DNA of 33,401 nucleotides from the IMG/VR virus record IMGVR_UViG_2724679239_000006; one strand, 5' to 3'. The notes under the pieces are model-generated. The model was not told the origin of the DNA. It did no database searches and worked only from the letters and a program-made list of their open reading frames with translations. The position numbers and the translations under genes were made by a program. This stretch comes from a virus (Duplodnaviria; Heunggongvirae; Uroviricota; Caudoviricetes). This document shows positions 5,027 through 12,519 of this stretch, piece after piece; the first letter of the stretch is position 1, and every line of letters starts with the position of its first letter.

Positions 5027-7810
5027 GTGGCAACGGAGTACATCAGAGACTGGCAACAACCACGCCATGCAGTCGGTCGCGAGGGAACGGGGGAGCCTGT
5101 CCGCCCCTCCCTTCTTTCTTCCTGGCTGGATGCCTACCGGGCAGAGAACGAGCGCCGCCAGGAAATGGCTGATGCGGCGTTCTCCGCTGCACCACTGGGC
5201 AATCTGATTAATAAAAGCCTGGACGCACAGGAAAAACAGGACAAAGTCATCACACTGGCAAGAGAAGCCAGAAAGCAGGCACGCGGTGCGGTGGATGAAG
5301 CCATGGCCTCGCTGCGTCTGCTGCCGTCCTATCTGCGTGATCCGCTTATCCGCCATCTCTCTTTCCTGCGCAAAAAACAGGAATCTGGCCACCAGAAAGG
5401 CAAAAAGAACCAGCAGGCGGAACGCTATGCGAGCGGAACCCTGCGCAAAATATTCGAACGCCTGGCCCGCACCGACCGTCGCTGGCTGACTCCGGGTTAT
5501 CGCTCCCTTGCCGGACGTGAACGTCTGGACGATTTGCTGTACCTGCCACAGCTCAACAAGCACCAGATACAGACGCTGGCCGTCATGACGGCGGCAATGT
5601 TCAGCAGCACCTTCGAAAAACTCTGCGATGGCTGTGGCGCGACCGACGGCGAGCTGACCATGGATATAACGCTGAAGGCGTATCAGATGCTGGCCCGCAT
5701 GGCGTTACATCTGCACACAGTGCCGCCGCATTATGACGCACTGACAACAGACAAAGACCGGAAGAACGAACCGGACACGGAACTGCTGCCGGGTGCAATC
5801 CTCCGCCTGACCTGTGCGGACTGGTGGAAACGCAAACTGTGGCTTTTACGTTGCGAATGGAGAGAGGAACAACTCCGCGCTGCCTGTCTGGTTTCCAGAA
5901 AAACATCACCCTATCTGAGTCAGGACGCATTAAGTGAATTTCGCGCACAGCGCGAGAAAACACGCGATTTCCTGAAAAGTTTCATGCTGGAAAATGAAGA
6001 CGGGTTCACGATTGATCTCGAGACAGTGTATTACGCGGGAGTAAGTAACCCGGTCCACCGTAAGGCAGAAATGATGGCCACCATGAAGGGACTGGAACTT
6101 CTGGCCGAAGCCCGTGGCGACAGAGCGGTGTTTCTGACTGTCACCTGCCCGTCAAAATACCACGCTACAACAGAGAACGGTCATCCGAATCCCAAATGGA
6201 ACGGCGCCACCATGCGCGATTCCAGTGATTACCTGGTTAACACTTTTTTTAAGGCGGTCCGCAAAAAACTGAATCGCGACGGCCTGCGCTGGTATGGCAT
6301 CCGCACGGTGGAGCCACACCATGACGGCACCGTGCACTGGCACATGATGGTCTTTGCACATCCTGAAGAAATCGACAGCATCGTGGACATCACCCGTGAT
6401 ATTGCCATTCGCGAAGACCGCCACGAGCTGGGCAATGACATAACTCCGCGCTTTAAGGCAGAGTACGTCGACGGTTCGAAAGGTACGCCGACCAGCTACA
6501 TCGCCACCTACATCGGAAAGAACCTGGACAGCCGCGCCGTGGATGGCATTGACCCGAAAACAGGCAAGCCACGCGTTGATCACGAAACCGGAAAATCAAT
6601 GGCCGAGAGCGTGGAACGCGCCATCGGCTGGGCGCGCCTTCACCGCGTCCGCCAGTTCCAGTTCTTTGGTATCCCCTCCCGTCAGGTATGGCGTGAACTC
6701 CGCCGCCTTGCCAGTCAGATGGCCCGCAACCCGGAAGGTCCACAACGTCTGGAAAATGACGCAATGGATGCGGTACTCGCTGCCGCTGATGCCGGGTGTT
6801 TTGCCACCTACATTGAGAAACAGGGTGGCGTACTTGTTCCACGCAAGGATTACCTGATTCGCACCGCCTACGACCTCGCAGAAGAGCTGAACGATTACGG
6901 CGAGCAAAGCGTACAGATTTACGGGATCTGGTCGCCACAAATCGGGGAATCTTCCCGCGTGTGCACGCACCCGGATAACTGGAAGCTGGTAAGACGTAAA
7001 CCGGAAGCGGAAGACAGCGCCCGCGAAAATGGTTTTGACCTTCAGGGCGGCCCTGCCGCCCCTTGGACTCGTGGCAATAACTGTCCCCGTGTACAGGAAA
7101 CGGACAACAACGGGACAGAACGGCCAGCACCGTGGCCGCAGCTTCCTGACGGCGTTGATGTGGATGAATGGATGCGCTCACTGAAACGGCACGAAAGCCG
7201 GGCGCTGATGCGTTCGCTGCGTGACAAACAGGCAAAAAACAACAGTGATGAAATGCAGAACTGGACACAGAGCCGCAAACAGCCGCGGCCTTTGCCTGAT
7301 AACCACGAGTTACTCGCTAAAGAATGGCGGGAGTCTGCCGAATCTCTCGGCCTGCATATCGGTGAACAACAGATGCAGCACCTGTTACGGGGCGGCAGTC
7401 TGTACGTTGACGGCAGCATCATTGCACCGCAGGGATTTGAAATTGTACGTAAACCGGATACCCGACCGGACAGCCGAATCACACAACTCTGGCAGCGCCT
7501 GAGCCGTAATCACGGCGTAAACAGCACGGAAATCCGCCATAACCCGGTTTCCAGCTATCTGAAACAGCTCGGGGCATCAGACCCAGAAGCCGCCGCACGC
7601 CTGGCATCCACAATTCAGCAGGACCAGAACACCATGAAAACACCCGTTACCGTACTTTCTGACATGCTGCGCACCATCCGTGACGCAGAGCACGCACAGA
7701 GAATCAGTGAAACCACTGAACGCGCCCGCCGCAAAGCAGACCTGCTGCGGTGGCCTGACCAGCGAAAACAAAAAACAGACAGAAACGGGATTCACAAATC
7801 CCGTAAATGA
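5027..7810 (+). CDS. A: Rolling-circle replication initiation protein (P2 gpA-like)
   Basis: 927-aa ORF (GTG start at 5027; true start uncertain); HUH-type motif GTVHWHMMVFAH and tyrosine-rich motif SYIATYIGKN typical of P2 A/phiX A-type relaxases. Confidence 0.85.
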   Translation: MATEYIRDWQQPRHAVGREGTGEPVRPSLLSSWLDAYRAENERRQEMADAAFSAAPLGNLINKSLDAQEKQDKVITLAREARKQARGAVDEAMASLRLLPSYLRDPLIRHLSFLRKKQESGHQKGKKNQQAERYASGTLRKIFERLARTDRRWLTPGYRSLAGRERLDDLLYLPQLNKHQIQTLAVMTAAMFSSTFEKLCDGCGATDGELTMDITLKAYQMLARMALHLHTVPPHYDALTTDKDRKNEPDTELLPGAILRLTCADWWKRKLWLLRCEWREEQLRAACLVSRKTSPYLSQDALSEFRAQREKTRDFLKSFMLENEDGFTIDLETVYYAGVSNPVHRKAEMMATMKGLELLAEARGDRAVFLTVTCPSKYHATTENGHPNPKWNGATMRDSSDYLVNTFFKAVRKKLNRDGLRWYGIRTVEPHHDGTVHWHMMVFAHPEEIDSIVDITRDIAIREDRHELGNDITPRFKAEYVDGSKGTPTSYIATYIGKNLDSRAVDGIDPKTGKPRVDHETGKSMAESVERAIGWARLHRVRQFQFFGIPSRQVWRELRRLASQMARNPEGPQRLENDAMDAVLAAADAGCFATYIEKQGGVLVPRKDYLIRTAYDLAEELNDYGEQSVQIYGIWSPQIGESSRVCTHPDNWKLVRRKPEAEDSARENGFDLQGGPAAPWTRGNNCPRVQETDNNGTERPAPWPQLPDGVDVDEWMRSLKRHESRALMRSLRDKQAKNNSDEMQNWTQSRKQPRPLPDNHELLAKEWRESAESLGLHIGEQQMQHLLRGGSLYVDGSIIAPQGFEIVRKPDTRPDSRITQLWQRLSRNHGVNSTEIRHNPVSSYLKQLGASDPEAAARLASTIQQDQNTMKTPVTVLSDMLRTIRDAEHAQRISETTERARRKADLLRWPDQRKQKTDRNGIHKSRK

Positions 7811-7880
7811 GCGAAAAACACGCCGCGATATATGAAACGCGCACAAAACAGGCAAAAGCGGGATTTCAGAATCCCGTAAA
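7785..7880. promoter_or_regulatory. Two copies of a 23-bp motif CGGGATT-N5-AATCCCGTAAA (7785..7807 and 7858..7880) bracketing the probable parM promoter
   Basis: Direct repeat of an internally palindromic motif; first copy overlaps the 3' end of gene A, second lies about 30 bp upstream of the parM start. Confidence 0.35.
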
Positions 7881-7911
7881 CGATTAATTAATCAACATAA
7901 GGAAAATCGAC

Positions 7912-8871
7912 ATGAAAATTTGCATCGACGACGGCTCCACCAACATCAAGCTGGCATGGACTGAGAACGGCGAACGCCGCAACGCCATCAGCCCGAACAG
8001 CTTCAAGTCGGAATGGTCTGCGCCGTTCGGTGGCACGCAGCCCGCGAACTACATGCTTGATGGCGTGCGCTATGGTTTTGATCCGGTCAGCGATCGCTTT
8101 GTCCAGACGACCGACACGCAATACCAGTACAGCGATGTGAATGTCATTGCCATTCATCACGCGCTGGTCAAATCAGGTATCACACCACAGGAAGTGGACG
8201 TGGTTGTCACTCTGCCACTGAGCGAGTATTTCGATACAAACGCACAGCCGGACATGGCCAACATCAACCGCAAAAAAGCGAATGTCCTGCGCCCTGTGGA
8301 GTACCAGAACGGTGAAGCATTCACTATCCGCAACGTGCGGGTTATGCCTGAATCCATTCCGGCTGGCTTTAAGGCACTGGCTGACATGAGTCCGTTTGAA
8401 TCTCTGCTGATTGTGGATTTAGGCGGAACAACGCTGGATGTGGCAAAGGTTCAGGGGCAACTGGCAGGCATCAGCCAGGTATTTTGCGATCCACATGTGG
8501 GCGTTTCCCTGATGACCGATGCCGTGTTGTCGGTGATGGCCGCCAACGGCATGCGTACCAGTCACCACGTCGCCAGTACCGTTATTGAACATCGTCACGA
8601 TGAAGCCTGGCTGCGCCGGCACATCCACAATGACGCGCATTACAACAGCCTGATGGCAGTTATTCGTGAAAAGGAGGAGACACTAAAACAACGCGTGATC
8701 CGCGCACTCGCGGGCTTTTCGGGTTACGGGCGGGTGCTGGTTGTCGGTGGAGGAGCGGAGATTGTGGCACCCGCAGTCCATGAAGTCTATGGAGTCAATG
8801 CGAATTTCATCACAGACGGGGTGCCACAGTTTGCTCTGGTTAACGGTCTGTACGCTATGGATAAGGAGTAA
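7912..8871 (+). CDS. parM: Actin-like segregation ATPase ParM/StbA
   Basis: 319 aa; N-terminus MKICIDDGSTNIKLAW and colinear conserved blocks (YSDVNVIAIHHAL, VMPESIPAG, LIVDLGGTTLD, VVGGGAE, LVNGLY) match plasmid R1 ParM as remembered. Confidence 0.85.
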   Translation: MKICIDDGSTNIKLAWTENGERRNAISPNSFKSEWSAPFGGTQPANYMLDGVRYGFDPVSDRFVQTTDTQYQYSDVNVIAIHHALVKSGITPQEVDVVVTLPLSEYFDTNAQPDMANINRKKANVLRPVEYQNGEAFTIRNVRVMPESIPAGFKALADMSPFESLLIVDLGGTTLDVAKVQGQLAGISQVFCDPHVGVSLMTDAVLSVMAANGMRTSHHVASTVIEHRHDEAWLRRHIHNDAHYNSLMAVIREKEETLKQRVIRALAGFSGYGRVLVVGGGAEIVAPAVHEVYGVNANFITDGVPQFALVNGLYAMDKE

Positions 8872-8877
8872 CCCTCC

Positions 8878-9189
8878 ATGGCGACATTAACCAGAAGAAT
8901 AAGTTTCTATCTGAAGCCAGCCGCCGTCAAGAACGAAGGCAAAGCATGCGACTGGCTGGACAGCCTTACACCAGAAGCCCGCAAAAGCGGCCAACGCGTG
9001 GCTTTTCTGGCCGGGCTGGCACTTCTGAAAATGAATCCGGCAGAGGCTTACCGACTGTCTGCATGGGCTGATGATGAGGCGTTATCAGTGACACAAACCA
9101 GGGCAGAACGCCACATGTTACAGCCAGCGCCCACCGCACAGATAACCAGTCAGATAGCCGGAAATATCCGGGCGTTATTTCCCGAATAA
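8878..9189 (+). CDS. parR: ParR-like centromere-binding adaptor (RHH)
   Basis: 103 aa directly downstream of parM; RRISFYLKPAAV...CDWLDSLTPEARKSGQRVAFLAGLAL parallels the R1 ParR N-terminal region. Confidence 0.7.
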   Translation: MATLTRRISFYLKPAAVKNEGKACDWLDSLTPEARKSGQRVAFLAGLALLKMNPAEAYRLSAWADDEALSVTQTRAERHMLQPAPTAQITSQIAGNIRALFPE

Positions 9190-9240
9190 CACAACATCAG
9201 GGCGCTGGCCAGTAGGGGCAAGGCTATAAATAGATGAGCA

Positions 9241-9263
9241 AAACGCCCTCCTCCAGGGCGTTT
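9241..9263 (+). terminator. Rho-independent terminator downstream of parR
   Basis: 9-bp stem AAACGCCCT/AGGGCGTTT with 5-nt loop followed by a T-rich tract. Confidence 0.5.
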
Positions 9264-9270
9264 ATTTCAA

Positions 9271-9300
9271 TGCACAATAGTGCACAAATTTGCACAATTT
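9271..9300. repeat. Three tandem 10-bp iterons TGCACAAWWW
   Basis: TGCACAATAG TGCACAAATT TGCACAATTT in helical phase; a fourth GTGCACAAA near 9362 and a GGATCCGT direct repeat at about 9341..9360. Confidence 0.4.
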
Positions 9301-9552
9301 TTTTGAACGACTTTTTACCCTTCCGGCCCGCGTGGTGGCTGGATCCGTCAAGGATCCGTGCGTGCACAAAAAAACGCGTTTTTTCTGCGCGCAGGTGACG
9401 GGGGAACAGCCCGCGTTTCAGGGGGTAAATAGCATTCCCCGAGCGATGTCGCAGCGACACAACAGAATGGCTGTATTTCTCACGCTGAGCGTGAAAAAGA
9501 CGTAAGGGTTTTTGATTTGATGGGTTGAAAGGTAAGGCCGTCAAAATCGCAC

Positions 9553-9575
9553 TGAGGCGGCGAGAACATACAGTC
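9553..9575. other. Candidate cos (cohesive end) site
   Basis: GAGGCGGCGAGAACA resembles the remembered P2 cohesive-end sequence GGCGAGGCGGGGAAAGCAC (12 of 15 positions) and lies about 150 bp beyond the portal gene 3' end, as in P2. Confidence 0.25.
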
Positions 9576-9671
9576 AACGCGGTGGGATTGCGTAAGAGTC
9601 TGACCGTCGATGGTGGCGATAAACTGGAAGGCGTCGTGAAATTATCTGACTGATACAGGAGCTGGAGAGTC

Positions 9672-9694
9672 GGGGCATAAATTTTTTATGCCCC
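9672..9694. terminator. Strong hairpin terminator between the cos region and the portal gene 3' end
   Basis: 10-bp stem GGGGCATAAA/TTTATGCCCC with 3-nt loop, A/T tracts on both sides. Confidence 0.5.
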
Positions 9695-9721
9695 GGCGAA
9701 GCAGCAGACAAGCGAAGCGCG

Positions 9722-10768
9722 TCAGGCTGTGGGCTGGGTGTCTAACAGTGCGTAAGGGTTAAAGCGGATCACCTCTTCGCCCAGCCAGTCATTGATGTGC
9801 TTCATGGCCTCCATGACGGGCATCAGCTCGTTAATTGCGTAAACCCGCGCGGCCTTCTCCACATCACCAAACGCACTTTTTTCACCCGGCATCGCCCCCA
9901 TCAGTTGCGGCGGAACGCGGTGCGCAGCCAGCACATCATCACGGGATGCCGCCTTAACATTCATGAACTCATCCTTTGCGGTGATCTGCTGGAACGGCAA
10001 AATTTGCCCCCCCTCTTTGCCCCCGTTGGGCGCATGAATGAGCACGTTTTTAAACGCACCACCACCACGTGCACCCTGTAGCGTTTCTTTCAGGGAGTCC
10101 ATGCTTTCGCGGTTTACCTGCGCTGCACCGATGTAGATGATGCACCCGGCGTGGGATCCGTTGTCGTAATACAGTTTTCTGAACATGTCCGCCGAATGAG
10201 ACAGGCTGGCCGAGAGTAATGCGCCGAGATATTCCGGCATGCCGTAGATTTCCTGGTTAATGTCAGGATTCATCAGGTGGCACACTTTACCAGGGCGAAA
10301 CTGAAACGCGTCCTTACCATCCTGCACATACCACCATGATTCAAGATCGCTTCCGCGTCGCATGTATTTCGCCAGGGCGTGCCGTAATTTAAGCGGTTCG
10401 CCGAGCATATTGCTTCGAAGCTCAAGGAATGCGTTACCGAACACAAACCAGTCCAGCGCCAGCGCCGAGAAATCCTGCCGGGAAAGCAACGGGTGCGGGA
10501 TGTAGCAACCGAGTAATACATTGCGCTTAAAGTAAAGCGCAGACTGATGCCAGGACGTTTGCCGGGCAGCTCTTGCCAGACCGTACCAGTCCACCGGGGT
10601 TTCATACCACCGCCCGTTATCAGCACAGTACATATTGTCCAGCAGGTCATGCCCAGTCAGGCGATAAGGACCATCAAATGTGAATGCACTGAGCGACGAT
10701 TCTTTCCTGAGCACATCAGCGAGATCAATGCGTGAACTCATGCGCACTTTTTTATTTTTTCTGCTCAT
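9722..10768 (-). CDS. Q: Portal protein (gpQ)
   Basis: 348 aa; position, size and orientation match P2 Q; ATGA overlap with the terminase gene stop. Confidence 0.9.
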   Translation of the reverse strand: MSRKNKKVRMSSRIDLADVLRKESSLSAFTFDGPYRLTGHDLLDNMYCADNGRWYETPVDWYGLARAARQTSWHQSALYFKRNVLLGCYIPHPLLSRQDFSALALDWFVFGNAFLELRSNMLGEPLKLRHALAKYMRRGSDLESWWYVQDGKDAFQFRPGKVCHLMNPDINQEIYGMPEYLGALLSASLSHSADMFRKLYYDNGSHAGCIIYIGAAQVNRESMDSLKETLQGARGGGAFKNVLIHAPNGGKEGGQILPFQQITAKDEFMNVKAASRDDVLAAHRVPPQLMGAMPGEKSAFGDVEKAARVYAINELMPVMEAMKHINDWLGEEVIRFNPYALLDTQPTA

Positions 10769-12519
10769 CAGAACTCCATAACCGTGAAACGCTCGTTTTC
10801 TCCTTCGCCGCCAATCGGTTCGTTAATGACTGCAAGCATGGTTGCCCACGCAAGGTCGCCGTGGCTGATCCCCCTAGCACGGTCCGTTTCGTAAGTAATG
10901 AAACCACCCGCCGTTTTTACCTTACGCACGGCGTTAAAGGCCGCAACCAGCTCACGTTCAGCGCGATCGTATTCCCACCGTCCGGCACGCATTATTTGCA
11001 GCATTTTCAGTACCAGCGACCGTTTTGATGACAGCGTGAAGGTGTACGGGATAGCCGCAGGGAAAAACCGTTTCACTATCTGATAAACAGCCTCCCCGTT
11101 CCCGCCCGTCACATCAATGCCGATGTGTTCCACGTTGTAGCGATACGTGAACTCTTCAATGACTCTGGCCTGTTCTTCAAATTCCAGCCCCTGAACGCGT
11201 CGCGTCTCCACCGTTCGAAAACGGCCACCAGGAACAGCCGGAGGAACCACCACGGACACAGCGCCGCTGTCGCCGTTGCCACTGCTGCCGTTTGCGTCAT
11301 ACCCAATCCATACCGGGCGATTCCCCATCGGGCGGGGAGCAAAAGGTTTCCAGTCTTTCCAGTCGTCGTATCCGTCAACACCGCAGCCAATCAGGATATT
11401 CAGGTTAAATGCCGATTCCCCTTCGCGAACAAATTCACACATATAGAGATTGCGGAACTCGTCTTCAGTGTTATTGCGTCGGATTTTGTCAATGCTGGTT
11501 AACGTCCATCCCTGATTGACCACATCTTCCAGCGTCACAATTTGCCGCCAGATGTAGTCAGGGCAGATAAGGCCGTTATGAAGTGCATTCCAGCTCACAT
11601 CAAAATGCTGACGTTTATGAGCACGAAGCCCTTCATTCCAGCGATCACCATTCCAGTATGCATACGCCTCATGTGTTTCACTTGATGGCGTGGAAAAATA
11701 GGTACACCGCAAACCATCCAGCGTTGCCATAGCAGCGGCCACCTTGCGCAGCTCTGTGAAACGCCCCGTCCAGAAAAACTCATCAAAATACAGATTCCCC
11801 GTGTACGATTGCGCGGTGGCCGCAGAAGTGCCGAGAAAATGCATCTCTGCGCCGTTGGAGAGGATAATTTTATCGCCCCCTTTCAGCTCCACATCAACTT
11901 CAGATGCAGCCTTCTGAATGATGTTTTTAAACTGGAACGCCTGACGACGCGACGCTGACAAAAAAATCTGGTTACGCTGGTAAGGTTGTGCCACATCGTC
12001 ACGTAACGCCATCAGCAGTGCTTCCTGTGCAAAATACCAGGTCGCCCCAATCTGTCGGGATTTCAGAATCATCCTGTCAGTAACTCCGGCACGCTCACAG
12101 GCACCGATAGCCTCAAACCATTTGCGCTGATGTCCGGCCAGCCTGCTGGTAATTTTTTCCCGCAGTGCGGCAATCTGTTCCGGCGTGAAATGATTTTTAA
12201 GTTTTTTCGCCCGGCCTTTCTTTCCTGTGGCCTTCGCATCCGGCTGGCCATCATGCAGTTTTTTAAGCTGCCGGGTCAGCAGGTCTATTTCCTTGAAGTC
12301 ACCACCTGTTTTATTCTGTTTTTCAGTAAGCTGGATAAGGCGCGCATCGATGGACTGCGTGACACGCTGCACGGGTGGCGTTTCATCCCACTGGTCGCGT
12401 TTTTTCCACGCATAAATCGTGTTCGGGTTTATTCCCATCAGACGTGATATTTCTGCGGGCGGGTAACCCTGCCAGTAAAGTTGTCGCGCACGCTGGCGCA
12501 CAAAAGCGTCCTGAATCAT
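10768..12519 (-). CDS. P: Terminase large (ATPase) subunit (gpP)
   Basis: 583 aa; divergent from the scaffold gene as in the P2 P/O arrangement. Confidence 0.9.
   Translation of the reverse strand: MIQDAFVRQRARQLYWQGYPPAEISRLMGINPNTIYAWKKRDQWDETPPVQRVTQSIDARLIQLTEKQNKTGGDFKEIDLLTRQLKKLHDGQPDAKATGKKGRAKKLKNHFTPEQIAALREKITSRLAGHQRKWFEAIGACERAGVTDRMILKSRQIGATWYFAQEALLMALRDDVAQPYQRNQIFLSASRRQAFQFKNIIQKAASEVDVELKGGDKIILSNGAEMHFLGTSAATAQSYTGNLYFDEFFWTGRFTELRKVAAAMATLDGLRCTYFSTPSSETHEAYAYWNGDRWNEGLRAHKRQHFDVSWNALHNGLICPDYIWRQIVTLEDVVNQGWTLTSIDKIRRNNTEDEFRNLYMCEFVREGESAFNLNILIGCGVDGYDDWKDWKPFAPRPMGNRPVWIGYDANGSSGNGDSGAVSVVVPPAVPGGRFRTVETRRVQGLEFEEQARVIEEFTYRYNVEHIGIDVTGGNGEAVYQIVKRFFPAAIPYTFTLSSKRSLVLKMLQIMRAGRWEYDRAERELVAAFNAVRKVKTAGGFITYETDRARGISHGDLAWATMLAVINEPIGGEGENERFTVMEF

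Follow-up and report, generated by a model that had tools for sequence, protein, structure and literature searches.

What a plasmid segregation system does for a phage that is integrated in a chromosome is a question raised by the parMR module of the viral genome record IMGVR_UViG_2724679239_000006. The textbook case of an actin-like machine for DNA segregation is ParMRC, whose centromeres (parC) are described as direct-repeat arrays. The window, meaning the whole 33,401-nucleotide stretch analyzed here, is a P88-like temperate phage or prophage of the P2 family (Xuanwuvirus, Peduoviridae), and its positions 7000-9400 are 92-94% identical to phage P88 and its relatives. Directly upstream of its parM-parR pair lie two copies of a 20-bp palindrome, referred to below as dyads, which comparative analysis indicates are most likely the core of a compact, dyad-symmetric, two-site parC for a type II (ParMRC) system. 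We found no published study of this locus in the literature on P88, Xuanwuvirus or prophage ParMRC.

Two copies of one dyad lie upstream of parM

A first-pass annotation of this DNA described a motif, CGGGATT-N5-AATCCCGTAAA, occurring twice with a separation of 73 bp around an AT-rich, TATAT-containing stretch, with the first copy in the 3' end of gene A. Written with N5, the motif gave no match even when 2 mismatches were allowed; with a 4-nt gap (CGGGATT-N4-AATCCCGTAAA) it occurs twice exactly, at 7786-7807 and 7859-7880, with no third match in the 33.4-kb window and 0 matches in 100 dinucleotide shuffles. The 73-bp separation is correct when measured start to start, and both copies are indeed palindromic, with 4-nt centers and perfect arms of 8 bp in copy 1 (7785-7792/7797-7804) and 7 bp in copy 2 (7859-7865/7870-7876). 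The first copy does reach into the final codons of gene A, TATAT does occur (7829-7833), and the downstream gene was correctly called parM, as it matches both StbA_N and the ParM C-terminal domain. The stretch between the copies is only slightly AT-rich (47% G+C, compared with 52.5% for the window) and is better described as A-rich. The features of the region are as follows.

7769-7810, plus strand: direct-repeat unit 1, 42 nt, made of A-rich flank CAAAAAACAGACAGAAA, dyad and TAAATGA (repeat search)
7785-7804, no strand: site 1, 20-bp dyad ACGGGATT-CACA-AATCCCGT with GGG-N10-CCC core at 7787-7802; exact palindrome, kept in about 88 related loci
7811-7841, no strand: variable spacer between the repeat units, containing TATAT (diversity, 0.097)
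7842-7883, plus strand: direct-repeat unit 2, 42 nt, made of A-rich flank CACAAAACAGGCAAAAG, dyad and TAAACGA (repeat search)
7858-7877, no strand: site 2, 20-bp dyad GCGGGATT-TCAG-AATCCCGT with GGG-N10-CCC core at 7860-7875; 73 bp downstream of site 1
7884-7911, plus strand: conserved AT box ATTAATCAA (7887-7895) and parM ribosome-binding site AAGGA (7899-7903) (diversity, 0.033)
5027-7810, plus strand: gene A, P2-type replication endonuclease, 927 aa (Pfam Phage_GPA, 4.2e-129)
7912-8871, plus strand: parM, actin-like segregation ATPase, 319 aa (Pfam StbA_N, 6.7e-82; ParM C-terminal domain, 4.1e-65)
8878-9189, plus strand: parR, ribbon-helix-helix adaptor, 103 aa (PF10784, 3.6e-24)

The dyads form the cores of the two 42-nt units, which are 79% identical with starts 73 bp apart, and this pair is the only repeated element upstream of parM-parR. 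Site 2 ends 35 bp before the parM ATG, placing the dyads at -127 and -54 from that codon. Palindromes as long and as perfect as these are fairly common in the window (19 observed versus about 8 expected); the signal is the presence of the same arms in two palindromes and not palindrome occurrence as such.

With a ParM ATPase gene, a ribbon-helix-helix ParR encoded downstream (parR starts 7 nt past the parM stop) and a repeated site directly upstream of parM, the locus has the organization that defines type II systems. ParM is 46-53% identical to the ParMs of IncF, IncI and IncL/M plasmids. A profile of ParR homologues matches the pB171 ParR structure 2JD3 (E, 5.6e-14), and a search of the PDB with the single ParR sequence found nothing. 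Because of the Pfam matches, the 2JD3 profile match and a ParM at most about 53% identical to plasmid ParMs, we classify parM and parR of the window as a true R1-type pair in a separate, phage-borne clade.

A partial copy of the element also occurs at 12056-12070, inside the terminase large subunit gene (minus-strand open reading frame [ORF] 10768-12519), where the left part of site 2 is repeated exactly over 15 nt (CGGGATTTCAGAATC) and the right arm (AATCATCC) is missing. Chance alone would not be expected to yield a 15-nt exact match in 33 kb, and this copy would be either a coding-sequence coincidence or a stray ParR half-site.

Arms, flanks and spacing are constrained among close relatives

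Close relatives were represented by about 88 loci carrying both dyads, drawn from IMG/VR contigs, three genomes and metagenome contigs, with third-codon-position diversity (0.10 in gene A and 0.08 in parM) serving as the neutral yardstick. A ParM scan of genome contigs contributed 3 loci, and a second viral-contig scan, started from the Hafnia ParM, added almost nothing to the loci already in the set. The 73-bp spacing was present in 58 of 59 distinct sequences. Diversity was 0.051 and 0.036 in the arms of the two dyads and 0.024 and 0.039 in the A-rich 5' flanks of units 1 and 2, compared with 0.12 and 0.26 in the dyad loops and a value close to that of third codon positions in the spacer with TATAT. 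The central GG/CC was invariant among 55 distinct sequences, from which the pooled half-site reads A-C-G-G-G-A-T-T.

Such loci are common in Escherichia coli. Region 7760-7915 was found in 1257 of 5426 complete genomes (about 23%), at 1386 chromosomal places and 2 on plasmids. One deposited record, NZ_CP148288.1 (locus L182), is a whole P88-like genome, integrase included, entered as a 34,461-bp circular plasmid.

The spaced dyad and its distance to parM persist in distant lineages

A ParM protein search combined with contig look-ups led to more distant relatives in P2-like prophages of Hafnia sp., Plesiomonas and Serratia, whose ParMs are 58-63% identical to that of the window. These distant prophages share the gene order A, (orf), parM, parR, portal. 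Together with a closer Hafnia locus, four lineages each carry exactly two GGG-N10-CCC elements within 300 nt upstream of parM, at the following positions relative to the parM ATG.

Window (E. coli): -125 and -52, spacing 73 bp
Hafnia, ParM 91% identical: -124 and -51, spacing 73 bp
Hafnia sp., ParM 63% identical: -128 and -55, spacing 73 bp
Plesiomonas, ParM 62% identical: -131 and -59, spacing 72 bp

In the two distant lineages, Hafnia-63% and Plesiomonas, the inner bases of the arms (ATT/AAT) have decayed. In the Hafnia-91% locus AAAACAGGCAAAA is identical, and ACAGGCAAAAACGGGA is recognizable in Serratia loci, where GGG-N10-CCC was not found upstream of parM; two CAAAAAC-anchored units with different cores occupy the same positions there, 72 bp apart. 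What the four lineages conserve is a spaced G/C-triplet dyad together with the distance between sites, and not a stem-loop, a pattern characteristic of DNA sites that symmetric protein oligomers bind.

The dyads travel with parMR

The upstream gene that extends into site 1 is one of three unrelated ones, depending on the locus: gene A (window and L184), a 155-aa ORF (L060) or a 167-aa ORF (L183). Gene A ends earlier in L060, the extra ORF (1957-2424) crosses site 1 in another frame, and homology with the window begins about 17 nt before the dyad. The ORF of L183 (2953-3456) has no recorded Pfam hit and overlaps both sites. The dyad was not found in P2 or in a Klebsiella P2-like phage, both of which lack parMR.

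The probable replication origin lies elsewhere. Positions 7046-7084, inside gene A and about 730 bp upstream of the dyads, hold a homologue of the P2 nick region (GCGGC..CGCCGC.CCT.GGA.TC.TG.CAATAACTGT). The alignment of GCGGCCCTGCCGCCCCTTGGACTCGTGGCAATAACTGT there with the nick region annotated in P2, GCGGCATCGCCGCGCCTCG|GAGTCCTGTCAATAACTGT, is much closer than a protein identity of 32% would lead one to expect. This homologue begins at a perfect palindrome, GGGCGGCCCTGCCGCCC (7045-7061), and the 62-nt stretch around it is the sole part of 7000-9400 that matches Klebsiella P2-like phages. Because the dyads are kept when the upstream gene changes, are missing where parMR is absent and lie apart from the origin, we assign them to the par module rather than to gene A or the origin.

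A natural variant without the element exists in a defective prophage of the E. coli EC7518 chromosome (L100, 2990-3040). There, a deletion that removed gene A and the two dyads has fused a DUF4761 gene to the sequence 38 nt before parM, and parM and parR are intact, making this a natural parC-less variant.

ParR has a conserved candidate reader of the site

The N-terminal strand of ParR, TRRISFYLKP, is the predicted DNA reader, and its C-terminal NIRALFPE is the predicted ParM-binding tail. Residues R6, R7, I8, F10, Y11, L12, K13 and P14 are invariant across 28 ParR homologues. The ParRs of the four dyad lineages are 35-38% identical overall and all share an N-terminal TRR[IV]SFYL. In Serratia the strand reads NRKISFYL, alongside the altered site motifs. 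Strand and motif thus seem to covary, a modest signal from few lineages.

ParRs of the P88 clade are short (101-104 aa), lacking some 30-40 residues of the helical domain present in plasmid, Hafnia-63%, Plesiomonas and Serratia ParRs. They vary far more (51-91% identity, with most of the variation after residue 60) than their partner ParMs (91-96% identity or more). The N-terminal strand and the C-terminal NIRALFPE are kept despite this variation.

Comparison with known partition systems

In all characterized ParMRC loci, parC lies directly upstream of parM (PMC5016525, PMC9426499). In R1 parC, a 39-bp spacer that holds the promoter separates two blocks, each with five direct iterons of 11 bp; the site is curved and adopts a U-fold with ParR (PMC2241845). 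The prophage region resembles it in lying upstream of parM-parR, in having two blocks predicted to bind ParR (with a spacer of about 53 bp), in an A-rich coding strand with 10.5-bp phasing of A residues, in a ParM about 46% identical to that of R1 and in a ParR of the same Pfam family. It differs in that two dyad-symmetric 20-bp sites replace the 2 x 5 tandem 11-bp direct iterons of R1, in that the R1 spacer holds the promoter whereas the spacer here is unconstrained and has no good promoter, and in that ParR is 103 aa long, compared with 117 aa in R1, with part of the helical domain missing. In the window, 2 of 1000 shuffles matched the A phasing; it is also seen in the Hafnia-91% locus and in an R1-like parC, and is suggestive of intrinsic curvature in this region.

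The closest solved ParR relative is that of pB171, whose unit of two 10-bp repeats also lies upstream of parM (PMC9426499). Those repeats are direct, whereas the half-sites here are inverted and the unit occurs twice, 73 bp apart. Plasmid pSK41 likewise uses a 20-bp unit of two 10-bp repeats with one ribbon-helix-helix dimer per 10 bp (PMC5016525), but as a continuous direct-repeat array in a Gram-positive host, and with a ParR that has no detectable sequence match here. One dimer per 10-11 bp is the rule in both R1 and pSK41 (PMC2241845, PMC5016525).

Inverted repeats have precedents among partition proteins. The ribbon-helix-helix protein omega binds direct and inverted repeats equivalently (PMC5016525). 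As is predicted for ParR here, omega of pSM19035 and ParG of TP228 are dimers of that fold that bind short repeats in direct or inverted orientation in equivalent ways and also act as repressors (PMC5016525); unlike ParR, they belong to type Ib (ParA ATPase) systems, and the long arrays that they bind are built of 7-bp heptads or 4-bp boxes. In SXT/R391, the 13-bp repeats of srpC to which SrpR binds include both direct and inverted ones (PMC4489591). The srpMRC locus, which stabilizes the excised circular form of SXT/R391 (PMC4489591), is a further likeness, being a type II locus on a chromosome-integrated element. It differs in that SrpR has no recognizable ParR domain, SXT/R391 is a conjugative element rather than a phage, and the repeat sequence and layout are not the same. 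What is new in the prophage, if the prediction is right, is a dyad-symmetric two-site parC, a variant of known ParMRC centromeres in which an expected element takes a form unlike the textbook tandem-repeat arrays.

A plasmid locus with a ParM 40% identical to that of the window (L087, IncFIA/FIC plasmid pRHB19-C10_2, 1030-1170) has several short palindromes upstream (CTCAAATTGAG/CTCAATTTGAG and GAGACTCTAAAAGAGTC) in place of a simple array of iterons. Type II centromeres may therefore contain dyad elements more often than the literature summary implies.

Promoter and transcription signals

The proposal that TATAT between the dyads marks the parM promoter is not supported. Two scans gave no acceptable sigma-70 promoter there: a consensus scan of 7500-9700 on both strands found no match at 9/12 or better, and the best candidates in a position weight matrix (PWM) scan were weak, at 1.5-2.5 bits, with the spacer candidate ATGAGC-16-TATATG at 1.5 bits. 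The spacer that holds TATAT is unconstrained; several close relatives have ATAAAACATG or GAAATATG in place of this element, which is absent from the Hafnia-63% and Plesiomonas loci.

A possible alternative is the ATTAATCAA box downstream of site 2, which we prefer because it fits the conservation data (low diversity across 7884-7911; the box is kept in the window, Hafnia-63% and Plesiomonas). The corresponding candidate, with -35 TTCAGA (7865-7870, inside site 2), a 16-bp gap and -10 ATTAAT (7887-7892), is also weak (1.7 bits). Alternatively, parMR may be read through from gene A, because the consensus scan found no terminator-like site on the plus strand between 7500 and 7912.

A proposed mechanism and the points that weigh against it

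The interpretation of the paired palindromes as the cis site of the partition operon, with predicted ParR sites split as in R1 parC, is supported by their fixed distance to parM in four lineages, their linkage to parMR, the constraint on their arms and the survival of the dyad rather than the hairpin. On this evidence, the two dyads are probably ParR binding sites. The N-terminal beta ribbon (TRRISFYL) of ParR dimers would enter the major groove, and each 20-bp dyad, composed of two inverted 10-bp half-sites, would bind a dimer of dimers. Because 73 bp is close to seven helical turns, both complexes would sit on the same face of the DNA. With A residues between the sites phased at 10.5 bp in the P88 clade, the two ParR tetramers could join there into one U-shaped complex like that of R1 ParR and parC. 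Such a complex would offer clustered NIRALFPE tails to the growing end of a ParM filament, and filaments would push sister copies apart. We give this centromere role about an even chance. An operator role in autoregulation stands at much the same level; because the best -35/-10 candidate overlaps site 2, ParR bound there would probably repress parMR by occluding the -35 element.

Several observations weigh against ParR acting on the dyads as a centromere and operator. All characterized ParRs bind direct repeats (PMC9426499), and the tandem direct iterons of a classical parC are missing here, the half-sites being inverted. Autocorrelation detected no tandem 10-11-bp array (z < 2 at lags 5-44), whereas control sequences gave z of 4.8 at lag 11 (R1-like parC) and 3.9 at lag 10 (IncL/M parC). 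Two sites would take only four dimers, perhaps not enough to form a ring that caps a filament. The A-tract phasing is absent from the Hafnia-63% and Plesiomonas loci, and the failure to find a convincing promoter makes the operator role uncertain. Finally, the match between reader and site is drawn from five lineages only, and the AlphaFold2 model of the ParR monomer was too poor (predicted local distance difference test score, 54) to be used for fold searches. Reading the 42-nt unit as four 10.5-bp iterons was also considered and rejected, as it gave no autocorrelation signal.

Alternative explanations

Another dimeric regulator, from phage or host, might bind the dyads and control parMR or the end of the early operon, and the comparative data, which point to a protein-type dyad without identifying the protein, are compatible with one. 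However, the phage genome has no further copy of the dyad, which therefore does not belong to a wider regulon, and the dyad moves with parMR rather than with the neighbors. Its motif also changes in the lineage whose ParR N-terminal strand changes, and the module encodes no DNA-binding protein other than ParR. We regard a different regulator as unlikely.

The palindromes could instead act as hairpins, either as stem-loops that stabilize or process an A-parM mRNA or as intrinsic terminators of minus-strand (antisense) transcripts. When folded, each gives a stem of 8 bp (about -10 kcal/mol), and on the minus strand a T-rich tail follows each and the structures score as terminator-like; on the plus strand, neither stem is followed by a T run. 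The predicted energy drops from about -10/-11 kcal/mol to about -3/-5 kcal/mol in the Hafnia-63% and Plesiomonas loci, while the GGG/CCC triplets and the 73-bp spacing (72 bp in Plesiomonas) are kept. Among 55 distinct sequences, 16 stem pairs contained 0 compensated double changes; all arm changes were one-sided, giving wobble pairs on either strand with no consistent preference. No Rfam family matched at E up to 1 in 7500-9750, and the consensus scan found no promoter on either strand. Minus-strand transcripts of the portal operon would already have met hairpins at 9674-9692 and 9243-9261, about 1.4-1.9 kb earlier. The combination that marks an intrinsic terminator, a stable stem with a U run and a conserved structure, is thus not what the dyads present. 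Because the spaced dyad is kept while the stem decays, both hairpin readings are disfavored, and we consider them improbable.

A nonfunctional leftover of a local duplication could yield 42-nt direct repeats whose copies stand only 73 bp apart. Such a remnant is very improbable given that variation in the arms and flanks is below that of third codon positions, that the loops and spacer equal or exceed it, and that positions and spacing persist to 62% ParM identity. The weakest proposal, that the palindromes form part of a P2-type rolling-circle origin, takes its appeal from the P2 nick site lying inside gene A (427 nt before the stop), as site 1 does, and is rejected as having almost no chance, since the nick-region homologue is some 730 bp upstream, P2 and the Klebsiella phage have no such dyad and another ORF separates the dyads from gene A in L060 and L183.

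Implications for prophage biology

If ParR does read two dyad-symmetric 20-bp sites, the region would be a minimal centromere, useful for asking how few ParR dimers can cap a ParM filament. A bolder proposal, which we consider doubtful, is that P88-like prophages carry a working minimal centromere, made of two dyads, a truncated 103-aa ParR and ParM, for a task other than plasmid maintenance. If so, it might segregate the excised or not-yet-integrated phage circle, in a plasmid-like carrier state comparable to that of srpMRC in SXT/R391. It might also act from the chromosome, for example in incompatibility or exclusion against related elements or in moving the chromosomal locus. Either way, a ParR would for the first time have been shown to recognize inverted half-sites, and its centromere would take only four dimers.

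The region downstream of parR

The parMR transcript probably ends shortly after parR, at a site recognized by consensus scan only.

9280-9305, plus strand: terminator-like hairpin (GTGCACAAATTTGCAC) followed by a T run (AATTTTTTTG)

The portal and terminase genes come next, on the opposite strand. The segment between parR and the portal gene (9190-9720) is a variable cargo slot (loci L091-L098, L100 and L183-L186), occupied, depending on the locus, by HicA/HicB, a helix-turn-helix and Peptidase_M78 pair, a PIN-domain gene, Rrf2, a methyltransferase or Ogr/Delta.

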